Positions 24,441 to 62,372 of a stretch of 64,000 nucleotides of DNA are shown here, in pieces. The stretch covers positions 130,859,522-130,923,521 of the forward strand of contig NC_092370.1 of assembly GCF_030028105.1 (NCBI RefSeq), written 5' to 3'. This DNA comes from Mobula birostris (lineage: Eukaryota). The stretch's first letter is position 1. Each line of letters opens with the position of its first letter. A model generated the notes under the pieces. That model was given only the letters and a program-made list of their open reading frames with translations. It was not told the DNA's origin and ran no database searches. A program made the translations under genes and the position numbers.

Positions 24441-24580
24441 GACTCCCGATGAAGGGTCTCAGCCTGCAATGTCGACTGTTTATTCCCCTCCATAGACACA
24501 GCCTGACTTGCTGAGTTCCTCCAGCATTTTGTACATCTTGCTCAAGATCTCCAGTAACTGTACAATTTATTGCATCTACA
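24441..24580 (+). mobile_element. Penelope-like element tail with a degenerate hammerhead motif
   Basis: ctcCCGATGAagggtctcagcctGCAAtgtcgactg followed by the family tail gctgagttcctccagcatttt. Confidence 0.7.
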
Positions 24581-24772
24581 AAAAACCCAGTAATTCTCTT
24601 GGTTTAAAGTAGAATGTTGATTGGTACATGATAAATACATTAGAACAAAACCAGTAATATACTATGTTGGGGTTGTTAACTTATCCAGTTTATTGGAATC
24701 AACAATAAAAATATTCAAATTCTATTCAAAACTAAAGATTTGAAAATTCTGTGAGATTTATACGAGGTATTA

Positions 24773-26055
24773 AAATTGTTCCTGTACCTAAAAAGACCAA
24801 GGTAACATGTCTGAATGACTGGTGTCCTGTCGCACTCAGCTCAATAATAAGCAAATGCTTTGAGAGGCTGGTCAAGGACTACATCTGCAGCTTGCTACCA
24901 CCCACACTGGACCCCCTACAATTCACCTACTGACACAACCGATCAACAGATGATACAATAGACACAGCTCTACACACTGTCCTTACACATCTGAAGAGGG
25001 ATGCTTACGTGAGAATGTTGTTCTTGGACTACAGTTCAGCATTCAACACCATAATTCCCTCCAGGCTTGACAAGAAGCTCAGCGACCTTGGCCTTCACCC
25101 TGCCTTGTGCAGCTGGATCCTGGACTTCCTGTAAGATCGCTGGCATGTGGTAAGAGTGGGCTTCCTCACTTCTGCCCCTCAACACAGAAGCCCCTCAGAG
25201 CTGTGTCCTAAGCCCCTCCTTTATTCTCTGTATACCAATGACTGTGTCGCCACCCACAGCTCCAATGTGCTAATTAAGTTTGCTGACGGTACCACATTCA
25301 TTGGCCTTATCTTAAATAATAATGAGGCAGCCTACAGACAGGAAGTCATCACCCTGAAACAATGATGTCAAGAGAACAACCTCTCCTCAATGTCGCAAAA
25401 ACACAGCAGCTGGACGTGGACTACAGGAGGAATGGAGACAGGCTAACCCCCATTGACATCAATGGATCTGGGGTTGAGAGGGTGAACAGTTTTAAGTTCC
25501 TTGGCATACACAGTAGCAAGGATCTCACATGGTCTGTATGGTGTGTGGTGAAAAAAGCACAAAAGCATCTCTATCACCTCAGATAGATGAAGAAATTTGG
25601 CACAAGTCCCCAAATCTTAAGGACTTTCTACAGGGGCACAATTGAGAGAATCCTGACTGGGTGCATCACTGCAGGAGGCCACAGAGAGTGGTGCGGACAG
25701 CCCAGCGCATCCGTAGATGTGAACTTCCCACTGTTCAGGACATTTACAGAGACAGATGTGTAAAAAGGGCCCAAAGGATCATTGGGGACCCGAGTCACCC
25801 AACCACAAACTGTTCCAGCTGCTACCATCTGGGAAACGGTACCACAGCATTAAAGCCAGGACCAACAGGCTCCAGGACAGCTTCTTCCACCAGGCCATCA
25901 GACTGATTAATTCACACTGATATAATTGTATTTCTATGCTATATCGACTGTCCTGTTGTACATACTATTCATTACAAGTTACTATAAATTGCACATTTAG
26001 ACAGATTTTTACTCATGTAAGAAATAAAGGATGTAAGAAATAAAGTCAATTCAAT
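24773..26055 (+). mobile_element. Rex1/Babar-like LINE RT fragment, 5'-truncated
   Basis: Peptides IVPVPKKTKVTCLNDWCPVALSSIISKCFERLV, LDPLQFTY, LIKFADGT and VNSFKFLGIH. Ends in aataaagtcaattcaat. Confidence 0.8.
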
Positions 26056-26744
26056 ACTTAAGAGCTGTTGATGCAACCTGTTAAAAATTCCTAACTGAAA
26101 TCAAATATCAGTTGCAAGCATCTAATTAAAAAAAAAACAATCGAACCATATTCATTAAGCCACTGAGAAATTGGAATGAAAGTCCCTAATCCTAAGATTG
26201 ATACCCCAAAGCAACGTATATTCTATTATATTTATATTTAATTTTTTTTTAAAGTATTAAAGTGTTGGAAGAATTGCAGCCAAATTTTACCAAAAAATCT
26301 CCTGTAAACATCAACGGGTTAAATAACTAAATGATCCATTTAAGAGTTAGTTTCAGAACTAAATTTGGCCAGAATACTAGGAGAAACTTCACTTGTCTTC
26401 TTTCAAATTCAAAATCTGAAACTAGCAGTCTTTCAAAATATAACATACATTTGGAATTAAAGTCAGATTACATCAGCTTAATTTATAATTAACTTAGCTT
26501 AATATTAGAGAGTAGTGTAACATTTACTAATGTCCATTTGGTACCCAATATCACGAAGGTCAGGCTCAGTAATAGCAGCCTAGCTCCATCTGCCCTTGTC
26601 TACATTGGAAAACTAAAACTGGCTAATATAACCAAGGCCAAATGGGGCAGCAGTCCTGGAACAATTTGTAAAAATTGGCTTGGTGTTGGGAGCATAATGG
26701 TTGAGAGTAGTTTTTGTTTTGTGACTGGTAACCTGTGATCAATT

Positions 26745-27300
26745 GTGCAGTGGCAGCACAGTAGCACAATCGCTTTACAGCGCTGTCGATCACTGATTGG
26801 GCTTCGAATCCCACCGCTGTCTATAAGGAGTGCGCACGTTCTTTCTGTGAATGTGAGGGTTCACGCCAGGTGCTCCGGTTTCCTTCCACATTCCAAAGAC
26901 GCACAGCGAGGGTCAGTGAGTTGTCAGCATGCAATGTTGGTGCCGGTAGCACGGCAACACTTGCGGGCTGCCCCCAGCGCAATCATTCAAATATGCTGGT
27001 TGCTGACGCAAAACAACTCATTTCACTGTACATGTGACAAATAAAGCTAATGCAGTATATATTTAACATAGATCAATAGTAGAACCCCCACAGTTTGTTA
27101 TATGGGGGGCGTAACAGTTAGCATAATGCTATCACAGTACCAGTGACCCGGGTTCAATTCCTGCCGCTGTTCTTTATACATACTCCCCATGACTGCATTG
27201 GTTTCCTCTCACATTCCAAGTTAGTAGGCTAATTGGTCACATGGGTAATTGGGCAGCATGGGCTAGCTGGGCCAGAAGGTCCGATTATCTTGCTGTATCT
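26745..27300 (+). mobile_element. Two adjacent SINEs (V-SINE/HE1-like)
   Basis: B-box-like gcttcgaatccc and ggttcaattcc; conserved core ggtgctccggtttccttccacattccaaagac. Confidence 0.65.
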
Positions 27301-28159
27301 CCAAATTAATTACTTAACTAGTTGGATGTAAATGCAGGAGGTGTGACCACTAAATTTCAGAAATTACTAAATATTATATTTACTAAGTTTACCACCAAAT
27401 GCAGAATTTTTTGATTGACAGGGTAGTTATGATTATAATAATTTAGCAAATGGGCAGAGAAATAACAGATGGAATTTAGTCCAAAAAAACTGCAAGGCAA
27501 TGCTGTTTCAGAGGACTAATAAAGTCAGGATACATACAATGAATGTTGGGACCCTAAAATGTAACAAGGAACAAAGGGATTTTGATGTACAAATCCAAGA
27601 ATCCACAGTTAGCAGCAGGCAGATATGGTGTACATCTTCTTGTCCTCATTATCTGACACACAGAATGTAAGCAGAGAAGGATGATCGTAAAAAATTTTTT
27701 ATAAAATATTAGCTAACCCACAGCTGAATACACGTGCAATTCTCATCACCACACTTTGGGAAAGATGCAATTACACCAGATCACCAGAATGTTGTTATGG
27801 GCTATGAGGAGACATCGGATAAACTAGGCTCGTTTTCTTTGAACAGCAACGCCTGAAGGAGATCCAAATTGAACTATGCAAAACTATGAGAAGCATAAAT
27901 TGGGTATATTATGGAAAATGTTTCCCTTTGGCAGAGATACCAATCACAGAAAAGGATATATTTAAGAAAGGAGTTACAAGATTTGGAGGAGAATCAAGGT
28001 GGGATATTTTTCAATCACTAATGGTTATAATTTGTACACAAGAGATTCTGCAGATACCAGAGACCCGGAGCAACACACACAAAATGCTAGGGATTAGGAA
28101 CAGGCATCATGAGTCGAAGTACAGTACATATTTCAGTGTGGTATTACTCTATAGCTCAC

Positions 28160-28760
28160 ATCATTATCAAAGCCTCATGCCACTAAGGCACCCCGGTGAA
28201 GAGTCCGCAACTCCCAGCCCCGCAGAAGCTTCTGAACTGACACAAACCGCAGAACCATCTCAGCCCACCCCTACTTTAAGAAATGTTTTCCTCACCAAGC
28301 TACTGCCAGGGATTATTTCCACACCAAAACGATCTAATCCCCGCAACCTCACATGAGGCCGACGACCAGTCTCCGAATAGGCTCCCGGGGACAGGCGCGT
28401 AACTTCCGGGCGGTCGTCAGCAAAACGGCCGGTGATTGGCCCCACGCGCCGACAAATGAGGAACTTGGACACGAAATTCGAACGCGGAGGCTGCGGTTGG
28501 TGGCGGGACGTCAATGGGTGGCTGGAGGTTTGCAGCCAAAGCCGCCTCGGTTTAGCGAGTGGTCGTTCCGGGGGAGCGTCGTCTGTCGAAGTTCGACGAG
28601 GTCATTTCACTTCGCTATTTATTGTGTGTGAGTATCTTTGGCTTTTAATGACTTGGTGAACCCGAGCACCGGGTCCTTTTTCTGCGGTCGGCGACTTCTA
28701 CCTATGGAATTTGTTACCACAGACGGCAGTGGAGACCGAGTCACTGAGCGTATTTAAAGA
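28160..28760 (-). promoter_or_regulatory. POLR2K: CpG island, promoter and probable non-coding exon 1 of POLR2K
   Basis: Strong CpG enrichment about 4.3 kb upstream of the first coding exon. ETS motif acttccgg (~28402), CCAAT box (gattgg ~28434), CRE-like gacgtca (~28507), candidate minus-strand donor cat|GTGAGG at 28352. Confidence 0.75.
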
Positions 28761-29008
28761 GGTTCTTGATCAGAAGGACGTCAAACGTTGTGGGAAGAAG
28801 GCAGGACAATGGGTTTGAGAGGGATAATAAATCAGCTGTGACTGAATAGTTGAACAGACTCGATGGGCCGAATGGCCTGAGTCTGCTCCATTGTCTTAAT
28901 TATTGTATTAAGTAGGATGAAAGAGCTGCCTATTGGTTTCTTTTTTCACGTATGTACGACTTGATTCGCAGTTTTGGTGAAACCCGACTGTCTTCTTGTT
29001 GAATCACG

Positions 29009-29140
29009 AACACGAGAAAATCCGCAGATGCTGGAAATCAAAGTACTAATACAAGGTTTCGGTCCGAAACGTCGACTGTTTAACCCTTTTCCATAGATGC
29101 TGCCTGGCTTGCTGAGTTCCTCCAGCATTTTGTGTGTTAC
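29009..29140 (+). mobile_element. Penelope-like tail with the 3' half of the hammerhead motif and an inverted remnant
   Basis: aggtttcggtccGAAAcgtcgactg...gctgagttcctccagcattttgtgtgtt, preceded by a minus-strand piece of the same family terminus (gcagatgctggaaatc). Confidence 0.7.
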
Positions 29141-29216
29141 ATTGTGTTGTGGTTTGAATTTTTGTGTCTGTGGCAAAGGAAAAGTGATAATTCGGAGCAC
29201 TAGTTCTGTTCTGCAA

Positions 29217-29502
29217 TATAGGCACCCGTTAGTCTCATGAGACCATGGATTTGCACCTTGGAAGGTTTCCAGGGTGCAGGCCTGGGCAAGGTTGTATGGA
29301 AGACTAGCAGTTGCCCATGCTGCAAGTCTCCCCTCTCCACGCCACTGATGATGTCCTAAGGGCATTAGGACCCATACAGCTTGGTGTCGTCGCAGAGCAA
29401 TGTGTCGTAAAGTGCCTTGCTCAAGGACACAACACACTGCCTCAGACAAGGCTCGAACTAGCGACCTTCAAATCCTTAACCACTTGGCCACGCGCCAACA
29501 CT
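29217..29502 (-). mobile_element. tRNA-derived SINE
   Basis: Minus strand begins with A-box tggccaagtgg and B-box agttcgagcc, then gtgtccttgagcaaggcactt. Confidence 0.7.
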
Positions 29503-35415: not shown

Positions 35416-35479
35416 CATGTTATTGCCCACCCCCTCTGCTCGTCCTCTTTATTTCCTTGTCACTACCCGGATTCTCGAC

Positions 35480-38086: not shown

Positions 38087-39742
38087 CAGTGCATATAAAA
38101 GTATTCACCCCACTTGGAAGTTTTCGTGTTCTGTTTTACAATATTGAATCACAGTGGATTTAATATGGCTTTTTGACACTGATCAACAGAAAAGACTCTT
38201 GTGTCAAAGTGAAAACTAATTTCTACAAATTGATCTAAATTTATTACAATTGTTAAACAATAATTCCATGATTTCTCACTCCCTTCAAGTCAGTATTTAT
38301 TAGATGCACCTTTGGCAGTAATGACTGCCTTGAGTCTGTGGATTGGTCTTGATCAGCTTGGCACATCTGGACACTGCAATTTTTGCCCATTCTTCTTTAC
38401 AAAATTGTTCAAGCTCTCTCAGATTGTGTGGGGATTGTATGTGAACAGCCCTCTTCAAGTCCAGCCACAAATTCTCAATTGCATTGAGGTCTGGACTCCA
38501 ACTTGGCCACTCTAGGACATGAGTTTAGTTGTTTTTAAGCCACTTGTATGTAGATTTGGTTTTATACTTGGGGTCATTGTCTTGCTGGAAAACAAATCTT
38601 CTCCCAAGTTGCAATTCTCTTGTAGACTGCATCAGGTTTTTGTCCAGGATTTTCCTGTATTTTGCTGCATTCAGTTTACCCTCTACCCTCACAAGCCTTC
38701 CAGAGTCTGCTGCAGTGAAGCATCCCCATAGCATAATGCAACCACCACCATGCTTCATGGTAGGAGTAGTATGTTTTTGATGTGCAGTGTTTGGCTTACC
38801 CCAAACATAGCATTTAGTCTAATGACGAAAAGCTCAATTTTGTTTTCATTAGACCATAGAACCTTATTCCAGATGATTTCATGTGTGTATTTTTCAACAG
38901 TGGCTTTCTCTTTGCCACTCTTCCATAAGGCTGTGACTGGTCAAGTACCCTGGCAGCAATCTCTCCCCATCTCAGCCACTGAAGCTTGTAACTCCCCCAG
39001 AGTTGTCACACTGGTAAAGCCTCCCCACTGTTGAGTACATCTAAACAAAATGTTGTCACAGGAAAGCAGCATCCATCATCAAGCACCCCTACTGTCCAGG
39101 ATGTGCTCTCTCAGGAGTATGAGAGCCTCAGGACCCACACTGCCAGGTTGAGGATTCTTGGTGGTCTCCCTCACTGGTCCCCTTCATGCACGGTCATTCA
39201 GTTTGAGGGCGGCTTGATCGAGACAGATTTACAGCTGTGCCATATTCTTTTAATTTCTTGATGATTGACTTGGCTGTATTCCAAGGGATATTCAGTGACT
39301 TGGAAATTTTCTTGTACCCCTCCTGATTTAGGCTTTTCAATAACCTATTCACAGCATTGCTTGGAGTGTTCTTTTGTCTTCATGGTGTAGTTTTTGCCAG
39401 GATCCTGACTCGTCTGCACCGTCTAGATACAGATGAGCTTTAACTACAATCAATTGAAACACCTTGACTGCATACAGATCTCAATTTTACTAATTATGTG
39501 ACTTCTAAAACCAGTTGGCTGCACCAGTGATGATCTGTCATATTAAAAGGGGTAAATACCTATGCAAAATACTTTTGTACTTGTAGAGATCACTTTGTAG
39601 AGATCTGTTTTCACTTCGACATGAAAGTCTTTTTCTGATGATCAGTGTCAAAAAAAGCCAAATTAAATAGCCTGTGATTCAATGTTATAAAACAATAAAA
39701 CATGAAAACTTCCAAGGGGGTGAATACTTTTTATAGGCACGG
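38087..39742 (-). mobile_element. Tc1/mariner transposon with both ends and a decayed transposase
   Basis: Long TIRs (cagtgcatataaaagtattcacccc... / ...gggtgaatactttttataggcacgg) flanked by TA. Minus-strand peptide KHGGGCIMLWGCF...FVFQQDNDPK belongs to the Tc1 DDE domain. A small LINE fragment is inserted at about 39020-39150. Confidence 0.92.
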
Positions 39743-40550: not shown

Positions 40551-40681
40551 TGTCAGATCATTGCCGTTCTAATAATGCAAATTCACAAAACTGTAACTTA
40601 TGGCATGAAGCAAACTTTTTTAAAATATGTTTGTTTGTTTCTAGGGGCTGCTGGTGACATCATATAATCTGTTGTGTCAAG

Positions 40682-42111
40682 ATGTTGAAGTTACTGAACT
40701 ACTCGTATGACCTGCTGACCATCTCTGACCTCCAGGGAGCTAATCCTGAAAAGTTTAAATCCTCTGACGAAGAACCATTCAGGGAGAGTGGCTATAATGA
40801 AGGAGAAAGTGAAGTACACTCATTTAGATATTTCAATGGAGCCATACAAGAGCTTGGTTCCCATACTGTTGCTATATCTCCAGTAGTGGGAAAGGAAAGA
40901 CAGTCCTTTAGTGCAAGGGCCTTCTCTACTGAAAGAAGTTTCGATGGGAAAAGAACCAACACTCTTTCACCAATTTCATTGGAAACTCCTAGGAGAACTG
41001 GCAAGACAATCACGTTGCGGCGGAGACTTCTTGACTCCCACCTCTCCTCAAGTGAGAAAGTGCGGTTGCACAAAACTGTTCAATCCTCTGCAGCTGGTAC
41101 AGAAGAATGGCCTTGCACCAGAATATGTGATAAATTATCCTTTTCAGATAGCTCATTAAATTCTCCTGGAGACTTGAATTTTGAAGTTTTATCAACCAGT
41201 GCCCTAAGTGATGAAAGTGGTGCTTCATGTAGAACTAAAAGGTATTTGTTTGCACAACAGCGAACCTCCACAATAGATGATTTAAAGTGTAAAAATCGGT
41301 TAACATATGAAAATGCATCTTCTGATCCATGCACTTCATTCAGTAAACTTGACCTCAGCAGTTTCTCTTGCTCTGAAGATTGTGGTGAATGCACCCTGTC
41401 TGAACCCTTTGTAACACCATCTAGACAGGGAAAATTCAACACATCTGGAGCTGACCAGTTTGTTACTCCAGTAAATTTCAATTTAAACCTGTCTGCAGGA
41501 GGAATGTTACAAAGAACCCAGTCACAGGACAAATTGGATACCTCAACAGAAGACAGTGGGTATAATTCGGTTGGTTTGGAAAAATCATCTGATTCCTTCT
41601 CAAATGAGAATTCCTTTCCAGAATTGGTGAAAAATCAAAAAAAACCCAAGATGCAAGAATCTAAGAGGTCTGTTAGACAATTGGAAAGAACTAAGCGTCT
41701 GTCCACTCTCAGTGAGCGCAGCTCCCAATCTGAGACTGAAGATGAACGTAAAGGAATTCTTCCAAGGGGGTCAAATTACAAATTCAAATCTCCCGGTAAA
41801 GATGATGAGTTGGTCTTTGAAGAAAATAATTGGGAGGACTTTCTAAAACTTGGGAATTTGTCTCATACCCCTGCGTTGCAGTTAATACAGGAATTATGCA
41901 TGAGGAAAAAAAGGTCGGAAAATATCACCAGTAAGGATGAGAATGGGTTTGAGGAAAAGGCACTAAGTGAATCTGTGCCTTCACTAAGTGGACTAATTGG
42001 CCGAAAAATGGGTTTAGAAAAAGTGGATATTCTGAAAGAACTATTGAACAGGAACTTGACACACGTTCTCACTATAATTTTGTATTGCTTCACTATAGAA
42101 GATATCTGCAG
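40682..42111 (+). CDS. FBXO43: FBXO43 (Emi2/XErp1, APC/C inhibitor) first coding exon
   Basis: 476 codons plus 2 nt. Emi2 motifs: AQQRTSTIDD (CaMKII/Plk1 docking), DSGYNS degron, RLSTL...SQSETE (RSK/PP2A-B56 region), LIGRKMGLEKVDILKEL and the F-box start. Acceptor at 40644, in-frame TGA upstream of the ATG (40655), donor AG|gtaaga. Confidence 0.95.
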
Positions 42112-42761
42112 GTAAGACTGGAGGAATGCAAATAGGTTTTTCCAAGTCTTTAGTCTGTTTCCCCTTTGCTTCTCTGCACCTGCACCCCTTCGAAAGAAGT
42201 CCTTCAAAGCATTTAAATACTTTGACTAGGATGTAAACTTACTATCATAAAACCATAAGACATAGGAGCAGAATTGGGCCATTTGGCCCATTGAGTCTGT
42301 TCCACCATTTAATCATGGCTGATTTTTCTTTTCCTCAACCCCATTTTCCAGCCTTCTCCTCGTAAATTACAAATATTCAGATTCTTGAAGTGACGAAAGG
42401 AACGTATATGATCTTTCATACCTTAACTTTTAATCTCACTATCTATACTAGGTACCTATTTATAAGAACTTTTTGTGCTTGGGGCTGCTTCCTATCTTCC
42501 CAATTCCCCATCTACTACCCTCTCTGGCTTCCAACTTCCAACATTTAATTAACTGCATTTTTCATTAAACTGCTACAACATTTTGGAGACATGGAATAGA
42601 ACTTTTTTTTTAAAGGAAGATATAACTACTGACTAGAAAAGATTTTACAAGTTGCATACATCAGCGTGCACCTTAAGCCTTTGACAGCTTAAATGGAGGT
42701 GATTATCATAGCCTATTCTAAATATTGTTTTTCCTAAGTAGACAGAACTGATAAGAAAACT

Positions 42762-43274
42762 CACTCAGTGGCCACTTTAATAGGTACAGGAGTGGAAACC
42801 AGTGTGATCTTCTGCTGCTGTAGCCCATCCACTTAAAGGTTTGACATGTGCGTTCAGCAGTGCTCTTCTGCACACCACTGTTGTAATGCATTATTGAGTT
42901 GCTGTTTTCTTCATGTCATCTTGAACCAGTCTGACCATACCCCGACCTCTCTCATTAATAAGGCATTTTCACACATGGAACTGCTGTTCACTGGATTTTT
43001 CTTTTGTTTTTCACACCATTCTCTGTAAACTCTCAGGAAATCAGCCGTTTCTGAAATACTGAAACCACCCCATCTAGCACCAACAATCATTCTACAGTCA
43101 AAGTCACTTACAAAATTTTTCCCCCCTTATGATGTTTGGTTTGAATGGTAACGGGACTTCTTGACCATGTCTGCATGGTTTAATGCATCAAGTTGTTGCT
43201 GCATGATTGGCTGATTAGATTTTTGCAGTAACAAGCTGGTGTGAAACTGCACCTAGTAAAGTGGTAACTGAGTA
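42762..43274 (-). mobile_element. Non-autonomous Tc1 derivative (same family as 1527-2043)
   Basis: TIRs cactcagtggccactttaataggtaca / gcacctagtaaagtggtaactgagta; interior is the reverse complement of the 1527 copy. Confidence 0.8.
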
Positions 43275-43745
43275 TGTAGGTCGTCTCTGGGTTAATACAC
43301 TCGCATTATTTTAAATTGCAAAGCTGAACTTGGATACATTCATCTCTGGCAGGGAAAGAGAAAACCAGCTCTGCCATTTCCAAAGGGTCTCGGCCCGGAA
43401 CATCGAATGTAATCTTTTCCACAGATGTTGCCTGGCCTGCTGAGTTCCTCCAGCATTTTGTGTGTTGCTTCCTCTCCCTCCTGTTTTAGTCATTGTTCAG
43501 TCTTGTGTGCTTTATACCTTTTCATACCAATACTGTGAAAGTATGGTTACTATTTTGTGTACTTTCTGAGTTGCATATAAAATCATTTTGTTGAGTGTCT
43601 ATAAAGTTGGAACCAGGGACAGTCTTTTAACAACAATAATGCACACTTTTTAAAAATGCTTAAAAACAAATGAATGTTAGACACTTGTTTAAATCGGATC
43701 CAGCAAGCTGGCTGTTGTTCATCTTGTTCTGGACTAAAACAATGT

Positions 43746-43779
43746 GTCCTGATGAAGGGTCTCTGCCTGAAATGTTGAC
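43746..43779 (+). ncRNA. Minimal type I hammerhead ribozyme motif (Penelope-like tail), catalytic core intact
   Basis: gtc-CTGATGA-a-gggt-ctct-gcct-GAAA-tgtt-gac: helix I gtc/gac, helix II gggt/gcct, predicted cleavage after GUU. Activity untested. Confidence 0.6.
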
Positions 43780-44312
43780 TGTTTTTTCATCTCCATAGAG
43801 GTGGCTTGACCTGGTGTGTGTCTGGCAGAATCTATTGTATTTGTTTTGATATCTTTTTGTTAATCTTGAGCACTCTTGCAATACTCCATTCTTCAGTGCT
43901 TCAGGCCTCACTGATCTCTCACACACCAGGTTGATGTAATAAACTAAATGTAGGCTAAATATTTTATTTCATCAAGCCCTCAAACAAAAGTGAGGACTGT
44001 AATTGCTGTCCATGTTCAGATGAACAAGTGTACTTCATATTTCATCGATGGTCAGAGCGACTCCTGCCAACTCAATAAGTCATAAAAAACCTGCTCTGCC
44101 CATCAGCAGTTATTGTTGACTGACGTGGTTCAATAAGCATTACATCAGGTCCAAAATCATCAATACTTTGCAGGACTTGTGTACAGAAACTTGTTTTGTC
44201 ACTAACTGTAGACCCTTAACTTTAAATATCATCTGGCAGTGCTGCAGGTTACCCACTAAATGCACAAGTTTTTGTCTTTATTTTGCAAATTAAATTCTTG
44301 CCTTCAAATAAG

Positions 44313-44415
44313 AGTATGGAAAGTGAGCAAAGTCTGGAAGAAAATCATCAAGCAAGACCAAACACTGTGTCTCAAAAGAAAGCAGTATCTGAATGAAGTT
44401 CAAAATCACAGAATG
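44313..44415 (+). CDS. FBXO43: FBXO43 coding exon 2 (F-box end: VWKVSKVWKKIIKQD...)
   Basis: aag|A GTA TGG...ATG|gtatgt; 103 nt; phase fits both neighbours. Confidence 0.93.
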
Positions 44416-44634
44416 GTATGTTTCTTTATATAATCTTTTGATAAATCATCTATTTTAGTTTAGAAAATCAATGAGCTATTTGCTGTAAGTTTGTCACTTT
44501 TGTCCTTGATGTGAAGCAGTGAGTGGTGAACTTGTATTCTTCCCAGTAGGAAGAGTATTTCCATAGAAATATCAGGAATCCAAAATGAAAACTGAAATAT
44601 GCTCAGCTAGTCAGGCAACATGTAGAAAGAGAGC

Positions 44635-44730
44635 AACACACATCAAAGTTGCTAGTGAACGCAGCAGGCCAGGCAGCATCTGTAGGAAGAGGTGCAGTCG
44701 ATGTTTCAGGCCGAGACCCTTTGTCAGGAT
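44635..44730 (-). mobile_element. Penelope-like tail with a mutated hammerhead motif
   Basis: Minus strand atc-CTGACAA-a-gggtctcggcct-GAAA-catc-gactg, then gatgctgcctggcctgctgc. Confidence 0.7.
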
Positions 44731-45359
44731 GTAGAAAGAGATTTTGGCTGGAAGCAGTCTTTGGCATGAAACGTTAACAGAGTCTCTTTCCACAGTTGTT
44801 GGCTGCATGTTCCTGTCACATTCTTGATATATGGTTCATTCAGGGTGGAAGGGAAGTGTAACAGCAACAATTATGACAAATGAAATTAGGCTGCCACTAT
44901 TCAAGAATCCGATTAACCATCTGCAGAAATCTGATATATCAAGTTGTAAAATTGGCTATTTTTTTCCACAGGAAGTTGAAGTGCATCTGAACATATAATT
45001 TCAATCAATTGGATTAAATAGAGATAGATAGTTGAAATTCACAGGTCTCTGAACAGTGCTGTGGGGCAATCCTTGGAACTGATTCGATGCAAGGGGCATA
45101 TAAGCTGTGTTCAAAATATAATGCAACAATCTGATAAGCAAGCTTTGAGCCAATAATGTTTCAAGGTGATGTGAATTTTTGAATGTGTTTTGCACAAGAG
45201 GTTTTTCTAATGGACTTTTGATCATGGGTATCATGGGCAAAGGGAACAGCAGAGGTTTATTGCAATGACCAGCTAAATGCTTGTTCCGGACATAGCTAGT
45301 CTTGGACTGAATAGCTGAAGATTTTGAATTTGTAAATGGATACCAAGTGCTTCAGTCAC

Positions 45360-45850
45360 TTAGATAGATAGGTAGACATTCTTTATTGATCCCGAGGGAA
45401 ATTGGGTCTGATTACAGTTGCACCAACCAAGAATAGAGTGTATGTATATGTGTCTGTGTATATATATATATATATATATCAATATAAAACCATTAAATAA
45501 TAATATGTAAATTATGCCAGATGAAAATAAGTCCAGGATCAGCCTATTGGCTCAAGGTGTCTGACCCTCCAAGGGAGGAGTTGTAAGGTTTGGCCACGAC
45601 TTCCTATGACACTCAGAGTTGCATCTCAGTGGAATGAGTCTCTGGCTGAATGTATTCCTGTGCCCAACCAGTACATTATGTAGTGGATGGGAGACATTGT
45701 CCAAGATGGCATGCAACTTGGACAGCATCCTCTTTTGAACACCACTGTCAGAGAGTCCAGTTCCATCCCCACATCACTGGCCTTATGAATGAGTTTGTTG
45801 ATTCTGTTGGTGTCTGTTACCCTCAGCCTGCTGCCCCAGTACATTTGGCA
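45360..45850 (-). mobile_element. Rex/Babar-like LINE 3' end with (TA)n tract
   Basis: Peptide WGSRLRVTDTNRINKLIHKAS, and a tail aataaagaatgtctacctatctatct on the minus strand. Confidence 0.6.
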
Positions 45851-46071
45851 AGCTTGTCTGTATTCAATGTGGGAAAATATTAAGAAATGAGTTCTTTCCA
45901 TTACTGCATCAGTTTGTTTAATTTGTGATGATTCTACAGGAGAAAGTTATCTAAGTGTTTTGAAATGTTTGATTTTTAGATTTGTTAACTGATAAGTTGC
46001 TTGTTCAAATTTTTAATATCTCCAATTGGGGTATATAAGATCTGAAAATAATATCTTATTTTTTTCAACAG

Positions 46072-46257
46072 CATAACCAATTTTGGGCCACAGATGTTGA
46101 AAGCAGATGTAATCTCCTAGATCGTCCTGCTTTGAAATCTGTTCAGGCACAGGCAAGGGTTGTCTTCACACCAACTCGCTCTACTCGACAGGAGCTAACC
46201 ACTACTGGATACAGTAGTGCTTCCAAGTCAATTAGTAAACGAGAAGAATTCTTACAG
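46072..46257 (+). CDS. FBXO43: FBXO43 coding exon 3 (D-box RPALKSVQ)
   Basis: tttttcaacag|CAT...TTA CAG|gtaagt; 186 nt open frame with RPALKSVQAQA and SKREEFLQ. Confidence 0.93.
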
Positions 46258-46462
46258 GTAAGTGTAAGAATATCTATTGGAGTTTCCCATAGACAACATT
46301 GAAATTTGCTGAGTTAGCTGGTTTGATAGAAACTGTGTATTTTCATTTAGATTTGTCTCTTTGAGAGACAATTTTGGTAGTGTTCGTATAGCTGGTATGG
46401 AATTACCAAAACATGCCATCAGTTCGCACATCAGTATTTCCTGCTGGCCTACAAATATAAGT

Positions 46463-47666
46463 ACACAAACAAAAAGTCTGCAGATGCTGGCAGTCCAAGC
46501 AAAACACCCACACACACCACCCACACACAATGCTGGAGGAACTCGCCAGGCTAGACAGCATCTATGGATAACAGTATAGTCGATGTTTTGGGCCGAAACC
46601 CTTCGGCAGGATTGGAGGAAAAAATGCTGAAGGAGTAGATTTGAAAGGTGGGCGCGAGGGGAGAGAGAAACACCAGACAATAGGTGAAACTTAAAGAGGG
46701 AAGGATGAAACAGAGCTTGGAAATTCATTGGTGAAAGAGACAGAAGGCCATGGAAAAAGTGGGGAGAGTGTACTAGAGGGAGGCAATGGGTGGGCAAGGA
46801 GATAATATGAGAGGGGGACAAGGGGAGGGGAAATGGTGATTTTGGGGTGGGGGGGCGGAGGCATTACTGGAAATTTGATAAATCTATGTTCATGCCACCA
46901 GTTTGGAGGCTATCCAAACAGAATACAAGGTGTTGTTCCTCCACCCTAAGTGTGGCCTTATCCCGGCATGGAGGAGACCATGGATGGGAAGTGGAAATAA
47001 AATGGGTGGCCACTGGGAAATCCTGCTTGTTCTGGTGGATGGAGCGTAGATGCTTGGTGAAGCAGTCTCCCAATCTTCTGGCAGACAGTGTGTAGATTGG
47101 GAGACCGCTTCATCGAGCATCTACACTCTATCTGCCAGAACAAGCAGGATCTCCCCGTGGCCACCCATTTTAATTCCACTTCCCATTCCCATTCCAATAT
47201 GACCATCCATGGCCGCCTCCACTGCCAGGATAAGGCCACACTTGGGTTGGGGGAGCAACACCTTATATTCCGTCTGGGTAGCCTCCAACCTGATGGCATG
47301 AACATTGACTTCTCAAACTTCCCGTAATGCCTCCACCCACCCCACCCCCACCATCACCATTTCCCATCCCCTTGTCCCTCCCTCCATGTTGTCTCTTTGC
47401 CCACCCCACCCATTGCCTCCCTCTGGTGCTCCCCACCCCCTTCTTCCATGGCCTTCTGTCTCTTTCACTAATCATCTTCCTAGTTCTTTGCTTCATCCCT
47501 CCCCCTCCAAGTTTCACCTATCACCTGGCATTTCTCTCTCCCCACCCCCCCAACCTTTCAAATCTACTCCTCGACTTTTTTTTCTCTAGTCTTGCCAAAG
47601 GGCTTCGGCTCAACATGGACTGTACTTTTTTCCATTGATGCTGCCTGGCCTGCTGAGTTCCTCCAG
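46463..47666. mobile_element. Inverted (fold-back) pair of Penelope-like element 3' fragments
   Basis: Minus copy 46463-47076 and plus copy 47094-47666 both encode the GIY-YIG C-terminus (LGDRFIEHL...PVATHFNS...EQHLIFRLGSLQPDGMNIDF), followed by a pyrimidine-rich UTR and a hammerhead-derived tail. Confidence 0.9.
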
Positions 47667-48223
47667 TAAGTGCTATAGTTATAGAGTGCAGTGCAGAGAG
47701 ACAAAAGGTGTAAGGTAAGTTATGAAGTCGAGTGAATCTTGTCATGCTAGGGAACTGTTCAGTAGTTTTATAACAACAGTACAAAAACTATCATTGACCC
47801 TTGGGTTGTGTGCTTTCAGGATTTTTTTTTGATGTTCTGCCCCATATCTTCTCCCGCATGACTATGTCCACAGTGGTTTGGGTCTGTTACAGTGTTAGTT
47901 GCTTTACCGAAGCAGTGAGAAATGTGGACAGAGTTCATGGAGTGCAGACTGGCTTCAGTGATGTGCTGAACTGTGTCCACAACACTCTGCATCTGCTCTT
48001 CGTCATGGAGGGAGCAGTTGCCATACTAGGCTGTAGTATACCACAATAGGATGTTTTCTATGGTGCATGAATTAAAGAGTAAAAGGCTGTGTGCCGAAAA
48101 GTAGTGTTTACTGTGTAAATTGAATATAAACTGAGTCTAATCCTTTCCAAATAAGGTTCTTGATCAATTCCTAGAACTTGGTGTTCAGTTAAATTTGCAA
48201 TCACTTGTTTGTTCCTAATTGCA

Positions 48224-48428
48224 ATGCAAATACTGAAGGAACTCAGCAGGTCAGGCAGCATTGGTGAAGAGGAATAAACAGTTAATATTTTGGGCTGAGA
48301 ACCTTCAAGACTTGGCCTAAAACTTTGACTATTTATTCCCCTCAATAGATGCTGCCTAACCTGCTGAGTTCCTCCAGTATTTTAGGTGTTAATCTGCATT
48401 TCCAGCATCTACAGAATCTTTTGTGTTT
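48224..48428. mobile_element. Short inverted pair of Penelope-like tails
   Basis: aaatactgaaggaactcagcaggtcaggcagcat... is mirrored by ...atgctgcctaacctgctgagttcctccagtattt; the junction falls within the hammerhead helix II region. Confidence 0.8.
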
Positions 48429-48640
48429 ACATTCCTAATTGCTTAATTTGTTGGCCTTTAGCTAGAAATTAGTTTTGTCCTTGGCTCTGGCTTTGACTAT
48501 TTTGCAATGCTTATTCATGGATAGAATTATGTTTTTTTTTCTCCCCTCTTTTTCTCCCCCCCCCCCCAACAAAATGTATTTTATTTGGTGACATTAAAGG
48601 GTGAAAATTTGGAACCTAAACTATGAATTGTTGCTACCAG

Positions 48641-48889
48641 GTTGCCAAGACATTGTTTAATGATGAGGCTTTAAAACCATGCCCACGGTGCCAGTCACCT
48701 GCCAGGTACAATCCAATGAAGAAAAGAGGCCTCTGCAGTCGAGAAGATTGCGCCTTTGACTTCTGTACACAATGCTTCTGTGTTTTCCATGGATCCAGGG
48801 AATGCAGCAGTAAGTCTGTCAAACACTTTGGCAGCAAAGGTGGAACACCAGGAAGTGCTCAAAGCAAGAGGAACTTGCGAAGATTATAA
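48641..48889 (+). CDS. FBXO43: FBXO43 last coding exon (zinc-binding region and RL tail)
   Basis: [21 protein letters not shown]...[24 protein letters not shown]...[13 protein letters not shown]. Total CDS is 1430+103+186+249=1968 nt (655 aa). Confidence 0.97.
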
Positions 48890-52459: not shown

Positions 52460-55110
52460 CATGTGTTTTGTAATTGAAATAAAACAAAGTCTGGAATAAC
52501 GTATCAAACTTTGCGTTTACTTTAAATGAGGTCTGCACTTATCATGTGGTAGCATGATGTATGTAATTCATTTACCTTTACATATAACCTGCAGTGAATT
52601 ATTTAAATAAACAAGAATGCTTAATCAAACACATTTATAATATTACTCAAATATTACTGACATACTAAATGTACAGCATTCTGCCCTGCTTAGCTATAAG
52701 CTCCAACTCTATAGAAAGCATTTCAACTATATACGCAGTGTACTATATAATACAACTACTAGATACAGACATCCACAGCATAGTAATTTTTCAAGTTGTC
52801 ACATTCATACCTAAAGATTTACTCGCTATGGAGGCTTTCTTACTCTTGTGGGATAACTTTTCCTGACCAGGGGGATCACTGCTTGGCAGGTGAGACTTGT
52901 GGCTGTGGAAGAATCTCATGTACTGGGGCCTCAGGTGGTTGTAGGAGCTGACTCTGGCACTGTGGGAAGTAGTTCTGACAGCTCTGGACACCTGTCCTTT
53001 TTTTTTTCTCTTCTTTCTAGTTTGTGCATCTTAATCTTGGGAAGGTGCATTTAGTTCACTGGAGTATTCTCTTATTAATCCTTCTGTTACTCCCTTTACA
53101 ATCTGATCTCTACTCTTGGTTTCCTCATCCACAACATCACCCGATGAATCCTCTGCTTTTCTATCCCCACATGGAGTTCATACAATAACCTTAATGCATG
53201 AGGAGTAGATTCCGATTCTTCATACTCACAAAAAAAAATGCTTGCAATATTCCTGAAGCTCATTGAACTCTCCAGCTTAAAACCAAGCTATATTTTTAAA
53301 ACTAACTGCCTGATTAACATATCAGAAGCTTTCTCAGATATGTTGCTTACAAAAACCATTGTAGTCAAATACCTGCTTTCATCACGTTCATGCTTTCTCT
53401 GAGCAGCATAGCCCTCCCTTGGTTCAAAATGCTTTCTAACCAGAGGTACAGAGGTTGGCACCAACAGCTGTTTGCCCTCTTGGGCAATGGCTCATGGTGT
53501 TCAGCATGGAGAGAGTTGTGGCATCATACAGTACCTTCCTTAATTCACTTTTAGTTGACTCTATTACAGGGGACATGGCATGCAAATCATGAATGGATCT
53601 CAGCTGCTCATGATTCCACAATGCTGGTCCTCCTGTTTTTACCATATTCAAGTTCAATGTGGTTTTTGTTCTTTGTTAGGAATGTCATTCCCACAGGAGT
53701 TAAGATTTCTCCAGTATAAGTTCTTACTTGGATATCTGCAAGCTTCAGTTCAGTATCTTTGAAATGCCATTCAAACTTATTTTGTGAAATGGCTAAAAAA
53801 GCCAAGGCAGTGTGCAATTTCATTTTAATGAATTTGCTGTTCACTTCTGGTGAAAGCCATATTGTCTCCTGTTAATTTTCACTGTATATATTTCAAGGCT
53901 ACCCAACCCTGTGTCATTCTCATCATTATCAGATTTTGCACCAACAGCACTACAGATTAGTGCTCTTTTTGGAACTGAAACTTGACTTTTTCTCTTTTCC
54001 TCTTCCCTGTGCAGTCCAATTACTTTTGTCATGCTCTTTGTATGTGTCCTAATTGATGGCATTTTCAGCAGTTTTGCCTTTAAGTCTGCATTGGTCTGGT
54101 GAGTGTGAGGCCCTGCCACAGTGTTAATACAATTTGTTCAACTAAGCCATTTTCTGTTTAGACATTGCAATTTTGTTTATGCTTACTTTCATTCCTGACT
54201 GCAACTCAATTGCATCTCTGTCTGCTATTTCCATTGATACAGCTATTGCAACTGCTCTTTTAAATGAAATTTGTACTTCAGTTAGGAGCTATTTTTCAAT
54301 GCTTTCTTGTAAGATTCCCCAAATGAAATAATCTCCCAGTGCATCACTGAACTGACAATACTCAGACACCTTCAATTCAGCCACATATGCTGAATTGGAT
54401 TTCCCTTTTGGTTCCACTTATGGAATCTAAAGTCCTCTGCAATCAACAATGGTTTTGGTTTTAAATTTTTCAGCGTTACTTTCACAATATCAACAAAGCT
54501 CATTTCAGCTGGTTTGGTTGCAGCAATCAAATATCTAATCAATCTGTATGCTTCTAAATCCAATGCACTCAGCAAAATTGGCATTCAATTCTCATTAGCT
54601 ATTTCATTTGCTTCAAAAATATTGCTCAATACACTCAGAATACAGGAACCAGTTATCTGTTGTGCAATGGAACGTGTCAATCTTTCCGATATAGCTGACC
54701 ATTTCTGTTTGTTTTTGTTTATTATTATTATCATCCGGTACTCACTGTTTAGGAACCCGTCAATTCTACCGTTTTCTGCCTTTTTTAAGAACTCAATTGT
54801 CTTTCCTTTTGCAAAGAAAACATGCTGCTCTGAAGAAAAAAAAATGTGCTGTGCTTTTTAAAACCCCTACCATTTCTCACTGAGCTTTTCTTTAACTCAA
54901 ATGTTTCACTGACAAGGGAGTCAGGAATAATATATCTAACTTCAAATATACTTTAAGCAAGGTGTACACATATCACGTGGTAGCATCATGACATATGCAA
55001 TTCACTTATTTTTGCAAAAAACTTGTAATGAATTATTCAAACAAACAAGAATGCTTAATCAAACAATACATTTACAATGCTATTCAAATACTGCTGGAGT
55101 ATTGACAACA
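52460..55110 (-). mobile_element. Degenerate, internally deleted Gypsy-type LTR retrotransposon with two LTRs
   Basis: Direct repeats at about 52460-52675 and 54915-55110 share tatcaygtggtagcat and aaacaagaatgcttaatcaaaca. Internal minus-strand gag-like (ILLSALDLEAYRLIRYLIAATKPAEMSF) and protease-like (IKMKLHTA...VRTYTGE) peptides; purine-rich tract next to the 3' LTR. Confidence 0.75.
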
Positions 55111-56264: not shown

Positions 56265-56394
56265 GTAAGGTGATGGCAGGGAACAACACTCTTTGGGAAT
56301 TAGATTTCTCAGTCCCACCGTTTGTTCACCCGTCCCTTTTCACTTGAACTTCAGCGAAGAGTCTGATGTGCCAAATGAATGTTCAGCAAGTTTC

Positions 56395-57339: not shown

Positions 57340-57845
57340 AAAAACAGTGGTGGATATGCCCCAGTCCATCACAAGAAAAGCCCTCCCCATCATTGAGCAC
57401 ATTTACAAGGAATGCTGCTACGAGAAAGCAGTATCCATCATCAAGGGCCCCCATAATCCAGGCCATGCTCTCTTCTCTCATCTACCACTAGGCAAGGGGT
57501 ACAGGCACTTTAGGTCCCACACCACCAGGTTCAGGAAGCCTACAACCCTATGACCATCAGGCTGCTGAACCAGAGTGGATAACTTCAGTCAACTGAACAT
57601 TCAATTAAATTCCAAAACCTATGGATTCACTTTCATGTTCTCATTACTACTTACTTAATAATTTTTTTTGTATTTGCACACTTTGTCTTCTTTTGCACAT
57701 TGGTTGTTTGTCAGTCTTTAGTTTTCCATTGATTCTATTGTACTTTTTTGTTTTATTGTGAATGTCCACAAGAAAATGAATCTCAGGGTAGTATTTGGTG
57801 ACGTATATATACTTTGATGATAACTTTGCTCTGAACTTTGAACTC
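57340..57845 (+). mobile_element. Rex/Babar-like LINE 3' end
   Basis: Peptide KAVSIIKGPHNPGHALFSHLPLGKGYRHFRSHTTRFR; ends in (tgaactt)-like repeats. Confidence 0.7.
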
Positions 57846-57967
57846 CTCCTTTCTATAGAACTGTAGAAACAACTTTTACCGTGTATTACTTGCTACTATT
57901 TATTAATTACCAGTTTAAAGCCATATTCTATTTTCTTGTTTAGTTTGCACTCTTTGCCTGGGCAGAG

Positions 57968-60600: not shown

Positions 60601-61059
60601 CAGTTCTAAATAAAATCTAAATGTACGTGACTGCCATTAATCCTTGCAACATTGTATGTCTTCTTTCAGTCTTCAGTGGGGCCTTTCTCACTGGAATATA
60701 CCTCTGGTGAGACAAATGAAGTATCTTCTTAAACGAGTATCCCTGCTGACCCATAGTCTTTAATCTTAAATATATTCCCAGTCCATTTTGTCAACTCTGT
60801 CTGCATTCTTCCACTAATGCCTATGCCTCCCATTTACAAGTGTCATTAGCTGTGTGACTAAAACTCTGCTGTGTACTGTAGTTAGAATCTTTTCTCCCCT
60901 TGACTTGAGTCATAGATTTTCTTTTCCTTTTTGCTCACTTCTATGAGCTTCATTCAGTCAAATTATAATTCTGTTCAGAGCCTTCTGCTTCTTCAAAGCC
61001 AACTGTGGAACGTAGCTATGTTCGGTAATTTAACACAATGCCTTTTTCCCCCAACCCTC

Positions 61060-61290
61060 TACCTTCCCCATCACATGGTTTCACTTATCACCTGCCAGCT
61101 TGTACTCCGTCCCTTCCCTCCACCTTCTTATTCAGGCTTCTTCCCTCTTCCTTTCCAGCCCTAATGAAGGGCCTCGGCACAAAACACCGTGATTATTCTC
61201 CTCCATAGTTGCTGCTGGATCTGTTAAGTTCCTCTGACATTTTGTGTGTGTTACTCGACATTTCCAGCATTTGTAGGATCTCTTGTGTTT
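61060..61290 (+). mobile_element. Penelope-like tail with a degenerate hammerhead motif
   Basis: cagccCTAATGAagggcctcggcacAAAAcacc... followed by the family tail. Confidence 0.65.
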
Positions 61291-61694
61291 ATGATTTGAT
61301 TTCTTTGTGTTAGTCTTGAACACTTTTGCAATATTCCTTTCGTCAGTGCATTGACAAGTCTCACTGATCTCTGTGATAAACTAAATGTGTGCTTAGTATT
61401 GTATTTCATAAAGCCCCCAACACACAAGTGAGAACTGTTATTGCCATCCACGTACAGATGAACAAATACATTTCATAGATAAAGTCTTATCAGTGTTGAC
61501 TCCTGCCAACTCAAAATAAATCAACTCTGCCCATCAGTAGCTGTCATGGTTGACTGTCATAGCTCACTACACATTTCATCAAGCCCAAAGTCACCAATAC
61601 TTTGCATGACTATGATTTCAAGTTCAAATATCAACTTCAAGTGATTTTAAATTAATGCTTTTAAGTTTGGCTCTTTGGGGTGGATGCAGTTACA

Positions 61695-62372
61695 ATGATC
61701 CGGTGCTCCTGGTGCGGCCTCCCCTACATCGGTGAAACCCGACGCAGATTGGGGGACCGCTTCATCGAGCACCTCCGCTCCGTCCGCCACAACAGACAGG
61801 ATCTCCCGGTTGCCACGCACTTCAACTCTGCTTCCCATTCCCATTCGAATATGTCCATACGTGGCCTCCTCTACTACCATGATGAGGCTAAACTCAGGTT
61901 GGAGGAGCAACACCTCATATACCGTCTAGGTAGTCTCCAGCCCCTTGGTATGAACATAGAATTCTCCAACTTCCGGTAATTCCCTCCCCTCCCTTCCCCT
62001 ATCCCTATTTCACTCTACCCCTTCCGCCAGATGCCTATCACCTCCCTCATGGTTCTGCCTCCTTCTACTACCCATTGTGTTTTCCCCTATTCCTTCTTCA
62101 CCTTTCCTGCCTATCCCCTCCCTGCTTTCCCTCCCCCACCCCTTTATCTTTCCCCTTACTGGTTTTTCACCTGGAACCTACCAGCCTTCTCCTTCCCTTC
62201 CTCCCCCCACCTTCTTTATAGGGCCTCTGCCCCTTCCCTCTTCAGTCCTGACGAAGGTTTCCGGCCCGAAACGTTCACTGATCATTTCCACGGATGCTGC
62301 CCAACCTGCTGAGTTCCTCCAGCGTGTTGAGAGTGTTGCTTTGACCCCAGCATCTGCAGAGTATTTTGTGTG
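61695..62372 (+). mobile_element. Penelope-like element 3' fragment: GIY-YIG endonuclease, 3' UTR and hammerhead motif
   Basis: ORF 61680-61979: IRCSWCGLPYIGETRRRLGDRFIEHLRSV...PVATHFNS...EQHLIYRLGSLQPLGMNIEF. CpGs are retained, so the copy is young. cagtc-CTGACGA-a-ggtttccggccc-GAAA-cgtt-cactg at 62243-62280. Confidence 0.92.

Follow-up and report, generated by a model that had tools for sequence, protein, structure and literature searches.

The window analysed here is a stretch of 64,000 nucleotides from Mobula birostris, and about 5% of it (3.3 kb, as summed profile-match coordinates) is a single dispersed repeat. The original prediction listed 11 positions, and all 11 hold the repeat on the strands given there. 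We searched the window with an nhmmer profile built from four of its copies, so those four seeds match by construction. There were 22 matches, of which we kept the 19 with E<=0.3 as pieces (approximately 13 insertions) and excluded three with E of 1.3–6.7; the reversed window, used as a control, gave two matches (E 0.79 and 2.5). Eight pieces are additional to that list: 2628+, 9921-, 10094-, 18604-, 18722-, 28098-, 29005-29054- and 44757+. Pairwise identity among the copies is 54–88%, which implies several subfamilies (Table 1). Seven of the 11 listed copies are in introns of an FBXO43-like gene and, because four of these are sense and three antisense, there is no sign of purging of sense copies. 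When we scanned bacterial and archaeal genomes for stray copies, there were three matches with about one expected by chance, and no homology extended beyond a 20-mer region.

Table 1. Positions of the repeat-derived features in the window
Feature	Position	Strand	Remarks
Divergent tail remnant	2628..2749	+	long extension; E 1.8e-09; outside the span of the finding
Two tail remnants	9884..10094	-	E 0.1 and 3.9e-06
Two tail remnants in tandem	18544..18722	-	no complete hammerhead
Short copy	24443..24577	+	decayed hammerhead (U4C, A13C), long tail
Tail remnant	28034..28098	-	long extension; E 1.2e-06
Inverted pair	29005..29140	.	minus arm is long-tail extension only (29005-29054); plus arm begins within helix II, has ACGU intact and a short end
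Short copy	43380..43470	+	subfamily of 46609/47592/29055; core position 6 is C but lies at the copy's 5' junction
Copy 43749	43744..43845	+	sole strict-descriptor fit (43744-43781); tail internally deleted; sense in FBXO43-like intron
350-nt segment	43827..44177	+	common to 61275-61611, directly after long tail, 73% identity
Minus copy with weak plus partner	44628..44805	.	hammerhead 44695-44732 (G8A); partner 44757-44805, E 0.23
Left arm of 1.2-kb inverted insertion	46462..47076	-	GIY-YIG end, 3' UTR, hammerhead 46577-46614 (A6C, G12A), long tail
Right arm of 1.2-kb inverted insertion	47094..47668	+	GIY-YIG end, 3' UTR, hammerhead 47587-47622 (C3U, A6C, G8A, 2-nt deletion), short end
Small inverted pair	48229..48431	.	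both arms truncated inside hammerhead; minus arm short, plus arm long tail
Copy with 115 nt of 3' UTR	61041..61611	+	decayed hammerhead 61156-61193 (G5A, G12A, U16.1C), long tail, shared 350-nt segment
5'-truncated PLE ORF end (GIY-YIG C-terminus and stop codon)	61703..61979	+	start set by 9-bp TSD candidate
Pyrimidine-rich 3' UTR part of pseudo-LTR	61980..62242	+	83% C+T
Minimal hammerhead (copy 62248)	62243..62280	+	11/11 invariant core bases; one mismatch each in helix I and helix II
Spacer, conserved tail, long (optional) 3' extension	62281..62375	+	

The element in the window is ordered as the end of a GIY-YIG endonuclease ORF, a stop codon, a pyrimidine-rich UTR, a minimal hammerhead and a tail. 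Three arms carry the 3' end of the ORF, with the motif approximately 270 nt after the stop. When translated, these ends are 74–85% identical to proteins derived from Penelope-like elements (PLEs) of Hypanus and Mobula (E 4e-45 to 4e-37), and tblastn gave E 1e-49 for 61703..61979 and E 4e-35 for the right arm at 47094..47668. The Pfam GIY-YIG match of the window fragment was weak (E 0.09), with its relatives at E 5e-4 to 9e-4, and all of these are below the cut-off. The repeat had been predicted to be a Penelope terminus bearing a minimal type I hammerhead, and the ORF end upstream of three arms bears this out and places the motif in the 3' pseudo-LTR of a PLE.

According to PMC8557442, a CX2-5CxxC linker marks Neptune and Nematis. 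A regular expression found this linker in five of the ten named ray and skate protein matches, and the copies in the window end before the linker and the RT. By this linker, the closest ray proteins would be of the Neptune/Nematis type. We found no RT-coding part and no full-length element in the 64-kb window, so the presumed autonomy of the parent element is argued from homologues; a PLE-type RT is present in ray and full-length relatives. We believe, with a probability of about 0.85, that the pieces are old, 5'-truncated insertions of a Penelope-like retrotransposon that was autonomous, carried an endonuclease and a Neptune/Nematis-type linker, and had several subfamilies.

The anatomy of the insertions has the hallmarks of endonuclease-bearing PLEs, with 5' truncation, inverted copies, an optional 30–40 bp tail and a TSD all found in the window. 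PMC8557442 describes 5' truncation, a 30–40 bp tail at one end and an inverted, one-arm-tailed layout with TSDs of 8–10 bp, and its Neptune and Nematis elements are like the ray copies in these features and in the C-terminal GIY-YIG. The 3' ends of the 19 pieces fall into two classes about 35 nt apart: nine are at profile positions 380–392, six at 348–356, and the other four are earlier. Of the four inverted pairs, three have the long tail on a single arm and the fourth lacks it on both. Every copy had been said to carry the same tail; in some it is incomplete, being internally deleted in 43749 and shortened in 47592 and 48308. Around the small inverted pair at 48229..48431 there is an exact 11-bp TSD (48212-48222 and 48432-48442; p 0.0013 against random flank pairs, at one of 15 loci tested), and this is the only locus of the 15 with a convincing one. 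A 9-bp candidate with one mismatch is at 61694/62376 (p 0.034, uncorrected), and the remaining 13 loci gave nothing above background.

The motif as reconstructed is a typical minimal type I hammerhead of PLEs, with a core of CUGANGA, GAAA and UH and with helices I and II. There is no two-sided covariation, and the retention of helix II (33/36 cells) is compatible with neutral decay (P 0.10), so the case for the structure comes from the reconstruction and its likeness to published motifs. Minimal hammerheads in PLE repeats were published in 2014, mostly as single dispersed motifs with thousands in a fish or amphibian genome (Cervera and de la Pena, PMC4209133), and the ray motif has the same build, especially as the Neptune motif of Acropora digitifera (Fig. 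S3 of that paper). Common to both are the CUGANGA core, an extra base before helix II, a G10.1-C11.1 pair, a 4-bp helix II with a 4-nt loop, a loop-less C-G palindrome (presumed ancestral in the ray motif), type I closure, the site 3' of the endonuclease, and dispersed copies that are mostly single or on opposite strands. In contrast to the published elements, a full element with two repeats is absent from the ray window. Fig. S3 (56 rows) and Table S1 list no shark, skate or ray, although further supplements of that paper, or those of bioRxiv 10.64898/2026.07.22.740005, may include the ray family.

The individual copies depart from this reconstruction. Seven of the 11 listed copies span the core, and in 29055, 43380, 48308- and 48309+ the CUGANGA half is partly or wholly missing. 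Only 43749 and 62248 retain every one of the 11 invariant core bases. The strict descriptor matches just 43749 and a relaxed one adds 62248, with shuffled windows giving 0.03–0.47 matches each. The ACGU palindrome predicted for helix III is intact in two of 11, and the majority base at position 16.2 is A (6 A, 4 G, 1 T), with positions 15.2-16.2 reading CG in two copies, CA in five, TG (wobble) in two, and TA and CT in one each. The pattern of CpG decay would point to an ancestral ACGU; the nine-row majority used for the reconstructed motif has a G/A tie at 16.2. The extra base between 9 and 10.1 is A in 9/9 aligned rows (one row being flank), and in the nine rows the 10.1-11.1 pair is G-C five times, G-U three times and unpaired once. 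Rfam scans of the whole window and two sub-regions, up to E 10, gave no hammerhead family, and the top matches were miRNA models on the inverted repeats.

We read the copies as fossils in which CpG loss is dominant because only two of the 11 cores are intact, the core decays like the tail, CpG sites are lost, and no pair has changed on both sides. Non-CpG mismatches are at 10/82 in the core and 45/335 in the tail (p 0.86), while CpG sites are mismatched at 26/83 versus 143/864 for other sites (p 0.0015), and 23 of the 26 CpG changes are C>T or G>A. Covariation of helices I and II, whose absence had been named beforehand as one refuting result, did not appear in the window, with 0 two-sided changes in eight pairs of nine copies, a weak test of low power in that the copies here are all old, with no young ones. 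Core and helix positions differ less than the spacer (25/199 vs 73/330, p 0.008), a comparison confounded by spacer misalignment, and this lower divergence would fit constraint in the master elements. In the tail, a covariation search yielded no more than a consensus stem of 4 bp (-1.1 kcal/mol), and we claim no conserved structure there. After insertion, copies would decay neutrally, and rapid inactivation would follow from their four or five CpGs, of which two fall on the catalytic G8 and G12.

Host use of single copies as working ribozymes would be most plausible for 43749, which is sense in an FBXO43-like intron, has all 11 invariant bases and is the one strict descriptor match. With a loss per core base of approximately 12% for non-CpG and 37% for CpG sites, however, two intact cores among seven core-spanning copies are unremarkable. 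In copy 43749 the 10.1-11.1 pair is also a wobble, helix I has only 3 bp, helix III is absent and the predicted catalytic-dimer energy is only -3.4 kcal/mol. We consider retention of single copies by the host highly improbable.

The short copies had been suggested to be a distinct non-autonomous family, retrozyme-like or SINE-like, which here would mean copying in trans by the PLE protein, perhaps via circular RNA. Coding sequence is indeed absent in 16 of the 19 pieces, and 10 of the 19 start within a hairpin zone of about 45 nt (0.021 ends per nt vs 0.004 and 0.0025 elsewhere), a pile-up that is inflated by non-independent arms and a profile seeded from four copies. Two copies also have 350 nt in common beyond the tail, with the same 3' end and different 5' ends, and a recent preprint (bioRxiv 10.64898/2026.07.22.740005) reports retrozyme families averaging 363 bp, derived from PLE repeats, in one chondrichthyan. 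Animal non-LTR retrozymes (PMC7229834 and the same preprint) resemble the ray repeat in type I hammerhead, PLE ancestry, and most copies having no coding capacity. As described, however, they are tandem units, each with a complete and usually canonical hammerhead, and they have circular RNA (PMC7229834). The window has no tandem array among nine TRF rows (longest period 17) and no tandem unit with a complete hammerhead, the sole tandem remnants (18544-18722 and 9884-10094) having no complete core. No tandem dimer was found either: motifs on the same strand come no closer than 372 and 1087 nt, and the spacers between them are unrelated; the inverted arms are on opposite strands, so no dimer is possible within one transcript. 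The 5' ends are heterogeneous and in none of the 19 pieces at the scissile bond, the nearest being at +6 and -9. Upstream flanks of short copies are unrelated, and there is no tRNA gene in the window (a weak test for decayed heads). The short copies 29055 and 43380 fall in the ORF-bearing subfamily, being 79–88% identical to 46609/47592, and the short copies in general have the anatomy of ordinary truncated PLE insertions (inverted, tailed on one arm, TSD-flanked). These data do not support the suggested family, and we regard it as distinctly improbable.

Truncated insertions of a PLE, which we prefer, would arise by steps inferred from published PLE biochemistry. The PLE protein would nick the target and start reverse transcription at one of two internal RNA sites, giving the short or long tail, and synthesis would commonly stop early, leaving most copies with the tail and hammerhead only. 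Priming on both target strands would yield inverted pairs of which one arm bears the long tail. The hammerhead hairpin probably stalls the reverse transcriptase, and we propose that 5' ends therefore pile up inside the hairpin and make the family look SINE-like. Poseidon of Anolis carolinensis (Frangieh et al. 2024, PMC11167929) likewise has a hammerhead in the pseudo-LTR, and the two 3' end points behind it set off an optional tail; it differs in belonging to another clade and in that its ORF starts inside helix II. We considered the tail as the ORF start of the ray element, with no full-length ray ORF found for comparison among the protein relatives searched, and the ORF start was thus not located.

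On its own, the motif is predicted to form a rod that hides the cut site by pairing core bases 5-8 with 15.2-17 (-14.5 kcal/mol vs -10.5 for helices I and II only), and the catalytic dimer is disfavoured, at -19.9 vs -37.3 kcal/mol for the best dimer; these energies leave out tertiary contacts. Since helix III lacks a loop and the cut site would lie hidden in the rod, we infer that the hammerhead of the master elements was a weak self-cleaver that depended on dimer formation or on protein. The same fold, together with the missing Rfam match and covariation and the A6C change in one subfamily, would also suit an accidental or vestigial likeness, in which the PLE ends in a plain hairpin, such as a signal for transcription start, splicing or protein binding, that was never cleaved in the ray lineage. 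The anole element did not require cleavage to insert in vitro, and RNA ends were not found at its cut site (PMC11167929); eight of nine Xenopus dimer elements had no cleavage (bioRxiv 10.64898/2026.07.22.740005). However, the reconstructed motif fits the full descriptor (the core and four extra PLE-minimal features) and none of 20,000 shuffled 3' ends do, and conservation of this motif extends from corals to reptiles (PMC4209133). As judged from sequence, a chance origin of the likeness is excluded, because no shuffle fits and the motif sits at the expected place in the element. A vestigial state in some subfamilies is possible, unlike chance, and we think this alternative unlikely overall.

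The arrangement is already known from many animals, and the window does not support a separate new family or a working ribozyme. What it does is extend a known PLE hammerhead feature to batoid fishes and give the repeat its correct label. What PLE hammerheads do is an open question in the field, and their role would become testable from genomes alone in a vertebrate family of very high copy number that has both A6 and C6 subfamilies and whose truncations concentrate at the hairpin.

The change at position 6 is in both arms of the 46.5–47.7 kb insertion and probably in 43380 (two to three decayed copies), whereas all 56 rows of Fig. S3 in PMC4209133 have A there. Lunse et al. on PLE variants aside, we found C at this position described only for the phage Bcep176 hammerhead, whose A6C ribozyme in vitro nearly loses cleavage in Mg2+ and keeps it in Mn2+ (PMC3088659, PMC7151607). 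The C is common to both; the phage ribozyme was assayed in vitro, and the ray one is known from decayed genomic copies. Our tentative reading, which we hold to be somewhat doubtful, is that one subfamily amplified from an A6C master and that the hammerhead, tail and 350-nt unit (43744-44177 and 61041-61611) may be a small PLE-mobilised non-autonomous element. If true, a genome holding A6 next to C6 subfamilies would offer a natural experiment to show if the PLE ribozyme is needed at all, or is metal- or protein-gated. Reading the repeat as a PLE end leaves the shared 350-nt segment unaccounted for; it has no PLE protein match, no third copy in the window and no Rfam match. The upstream flanks of its two copies are unrelated (score 29, equalled or exceeded in 69 of 300 shuffles). 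A 60-residue frame in the segment has two weak protein matches (E 2e-4 and 5e-4).

The hammerhead repeat is real, yet it is what decayed and truncated insertions of a Penelope-like element (PLE) are expected to carry. All 11 copies listed in the original prediction are present in the window (vertebrate DNA, repeat-rich, 41% G+C), and its recognition of the motif as a PLE minimal hammerhead was correct. A profile search seeded with four window copies gave 22 matches, of which 19 had E <= 0.3; we discarded the three weakest as chance (a reversed-window control gave 2 matches, E 0.79 and 2.5). After we merged inverted and neighbouring pieces, the 19 pieces came to about 13 insertions.

Coordinates of the repeat copies and other features in the window
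Feature	Position	Strand
Copy 43749	43744-43845	+
Copy 62248	in 61703-62375	+
Copy 61161	in 61041-61611	+
Copy 29055, plus arm of inverted pair	in 29005-29140	+
Copy 43380, short	43380-43470	+
Large inverted insertion	46462-47668	left arm -, right arm +
Hammerhead with C6, left arm	46577-46614	-
Hammerhead with C6, right arm	47587-47622	+
Hammerhead with probable C6, copy 43380	43371-43386	+
GT/AC expansion	46505-46529	
Hammerhead-tail spacer (example)	24478-24497	+
Shared 350-nt segment	43827-44177; 61275-61611	
Emi-family gene	at least 40658 to 48889	+
Emi-family exon ends	42111, 44415, 46257	+
Emi-family last exon	from 48641	+
Hairpin	23012-23105	
LINE-type RT (Pfam RVT_1, E 4.5e-12)	5466-5876	-
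Other mobile-element fragments	634-1020; 12759-13121; 38303-38818; 53439-54857	-

In the reconstructed motif, a helix I of 5 bp is followed by the CUGANGA core and one extra A; next come a helix II of 4 bp closed by a tetraloop, then GAAA, a C-G step that lacks a loop, and UC. Core positions are given in the usual hammerhead numbering. The motif satisfies the full descriptor, as did none of 20,000 dinucleotide shuffles of a 399-nt element end. Individual copies mostly fail it: the strict form accepts 43749 alone and the relaxed form adds 62248, for a total of two, with a background of 0.03-0.47 matches per shuffled window. Truncation has cut the core in 4 of the 11 listed copies, and all 11 invariant core bases are intact in only 2. 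The predicted ACGU palindrome is intact in 2/11 copies only and is otherwise inferred from a CG/CA/TG pattern that fits a decaying ancestral CpG. At position 16.2, A is the majority base among the listed copies. Rfam searches of the whole window and of sub-regions returned no hammerhead match, which we find unsurprising because the motif has no helix III.

Upstream of copy 62248, and of each arm of the large inverted insertion, lie the end of a GIY-YIG ORF and then ~270 nt of pyrimidine-rich UTR. The named proteins nearest to the coding piece belong to the rays Hypanus and Mobula (74-85% identity) and to a skate (65%), which makes a batoid fish the probable host. On their own, Pfam matches to the GIY-YIG fragments are weak; the PLE identity rests on similarity to ray proteins whose sequence runs on into a PLE reverse transcriptase (RT), and on the full-length RT-EN relatives of these, which have 800-1000 residues. 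By regex, 5 of 10 named ray/skate matches carry the CX2-5CxxC linker, a mark of Neptune and Nematis according to PMC8557442. We found no further PLE coding remnants elsewhere in the window. Ray gene models under the names mucin-2, DIPK1C, ABHD14A and LAMP3 (P0001, P0002, P0011, P0012) incorporate pieces of the ORF, as either exonisation or annotation artefacts.

The 3' ends fall into two clusters about 35 nt apart (9/19 and 6/19), with 4/19 stopping earlier; the profile contributes to this gap, but the second motif is visibly absent from the short copies. There are four inverted pairs, and in three the long tail is restricted to one arm; in the pair at 29005, the inverted arm is the tail extension alone. 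Target duplications flank 2 of the 15 loci tested, with none at the other 13: an exact 11-bp one at the pair 48229-48431 (p 0.0013) and, with a single mismatch, one of 9 bp at 61703-62375 (p 0.034). In the PLE layout outlined in PMC8557442, repeats are inverted, one end carries a tail of 30-40 bp, and TSDs measure 8-10 bp; in the anole element of PMC11167929, the tail corresponds to the interval from one RT start site to the other. The short copies match this layout, and therefore no separate family is needed. The long tail in the left arm of the large insertion contains a short GT/AC expansion.

It had also been proposed that the short copies are a retrozyme-like family. Retrozymes are described, in PMC7229834, as tandem units that each have a complete hammerhead. 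TRF found nine short arrays in the window, with periods of at most 17, and the motif is in none of them; short copies 29055 and 43380 share 79-88% identity with the arms that bear the ORF, so this proposal is not supported. A distinct unit among the short copies is hinted at only by a shared 350-nt segment (73% identity, E 1e-53), which lies directly downstream of the long tail in copies 43749 and 61161 and has the same 3' end in both. It has no third copy in the window, its upstream flanks are unrelated, and no protein or Rfam identity was found. It may equally be the element's own 5' region, a host capture (described for rotifer PLEs) or a local duplication.

The share of non-CpG positions that mismatch the consensus is 10/82 for the invariant core and 45/335 for the tail (p 0.86 between these two); it is 15/117 for the helices and 73/330 for loops and spacer. 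Of CpG sites, 26/83 are mutated, against 143/864 of the other sites (p 0.0015). Helix II pairing is kept in 33/36 cells, within neutral simulation (P 0.10), and the anticipated helix covariation did not appear, no pair showing two-sided change in the window copies. Introns hold seven of the 11 listed copies, 4 in sense and 3 in antisense orientation. These mismatch, pairing and orientation results fit dead copies. Core and helices together diverge less than the spacer (p 0.008), which hints weakly that the master elements were under constraint.

The best lead from the PLE hammerhead is an A6C subfamily. Core position 6 is C in the two arms of the large insertion and probably in copy 43380, and all three of these copies have A at 16.2. 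Since the two arms are one event, C6 has been seen independently twice at most. In Fig. S3 of PMC4209133, position 6 is A in 56/56 motifs, whereas here it is C in one subfamily. For the hammerhead of phage Bcep176, PMC3088659 and PMC7151607 report that A6C lowers activity in Mg2+ but leaves activity in Mn2+.

Under a nearest-neighbour model without tertiary terms, the inferred ancestral motif is predicted to fold as a rod (-14.5 kcal/mol; helices I and II alone -10.5) with core bases 5-8 paired with 15.2-17, and the catalytic dimer is predicted at -19.9 vs -37.3 for the best dimer. These predicted energies agree with the low in vitro activity of PLE minimal hammerhead dimers (PMC4209133) and with protein-assisted cleavage in the anole PLE (PMC11167929). 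Ten of the 19 pieces have their 5' end inside the hairpin zone, and none at the cut site. The zone has 0.021 ends per nt at risk, compared with 0.004 and 0.0025 elsewhere (binomial p 1e-4 to 1e-3). Either stalling of the RT or annealing of strands at this hairpin would account for the SINE-like look. The pile-up is only a lead because arms of one insertion are non-independent and the upstream profile is thin.

Our search of literature outside subscription journals found no paper on a PLE hammerhead from sharks or rays; in those journals or in repeat databases the family is probably already annotated as a PLE. The hammerhead is of a known kind, and the host lineage is new for that kind. One chondrichthyan was sampled in bioRxiv 10.64898/2026.07.22.740005, with retrozymes and PLEs found.

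The spliced Emi-family gene is called FBXO43-like. Its last exon matches solved structures of FBXO43 (E 3.5e-22) and FBXO5 (E 1.1e-20), and its long exon matches FBXO5 only (E 2.6e-5). Its introns contain 8/19 repeat pieces in about 5 kb, a density above the rest of the window. Introns are frequent in PLE repeats. The hammerhead-tail spacer has a pyrimidine run and then YAG and ATG ~20 nt past the cut site; judged by sequence, this arrangement suggests a candidate splice acceptor, and the first five bases of the core a branch point. Two reading frames are open throughout the tail. The near-perfect hairpin (about 40 bp, 5-nt loop), which matched a plant miRNA model, is probably a small inverted-repeat element. 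Beside the LINE-type RT, we take the remaining mobile-element fragments, by eye, to be an integrase-like piece, a Tc1-like transposase and LTR-element pieces.
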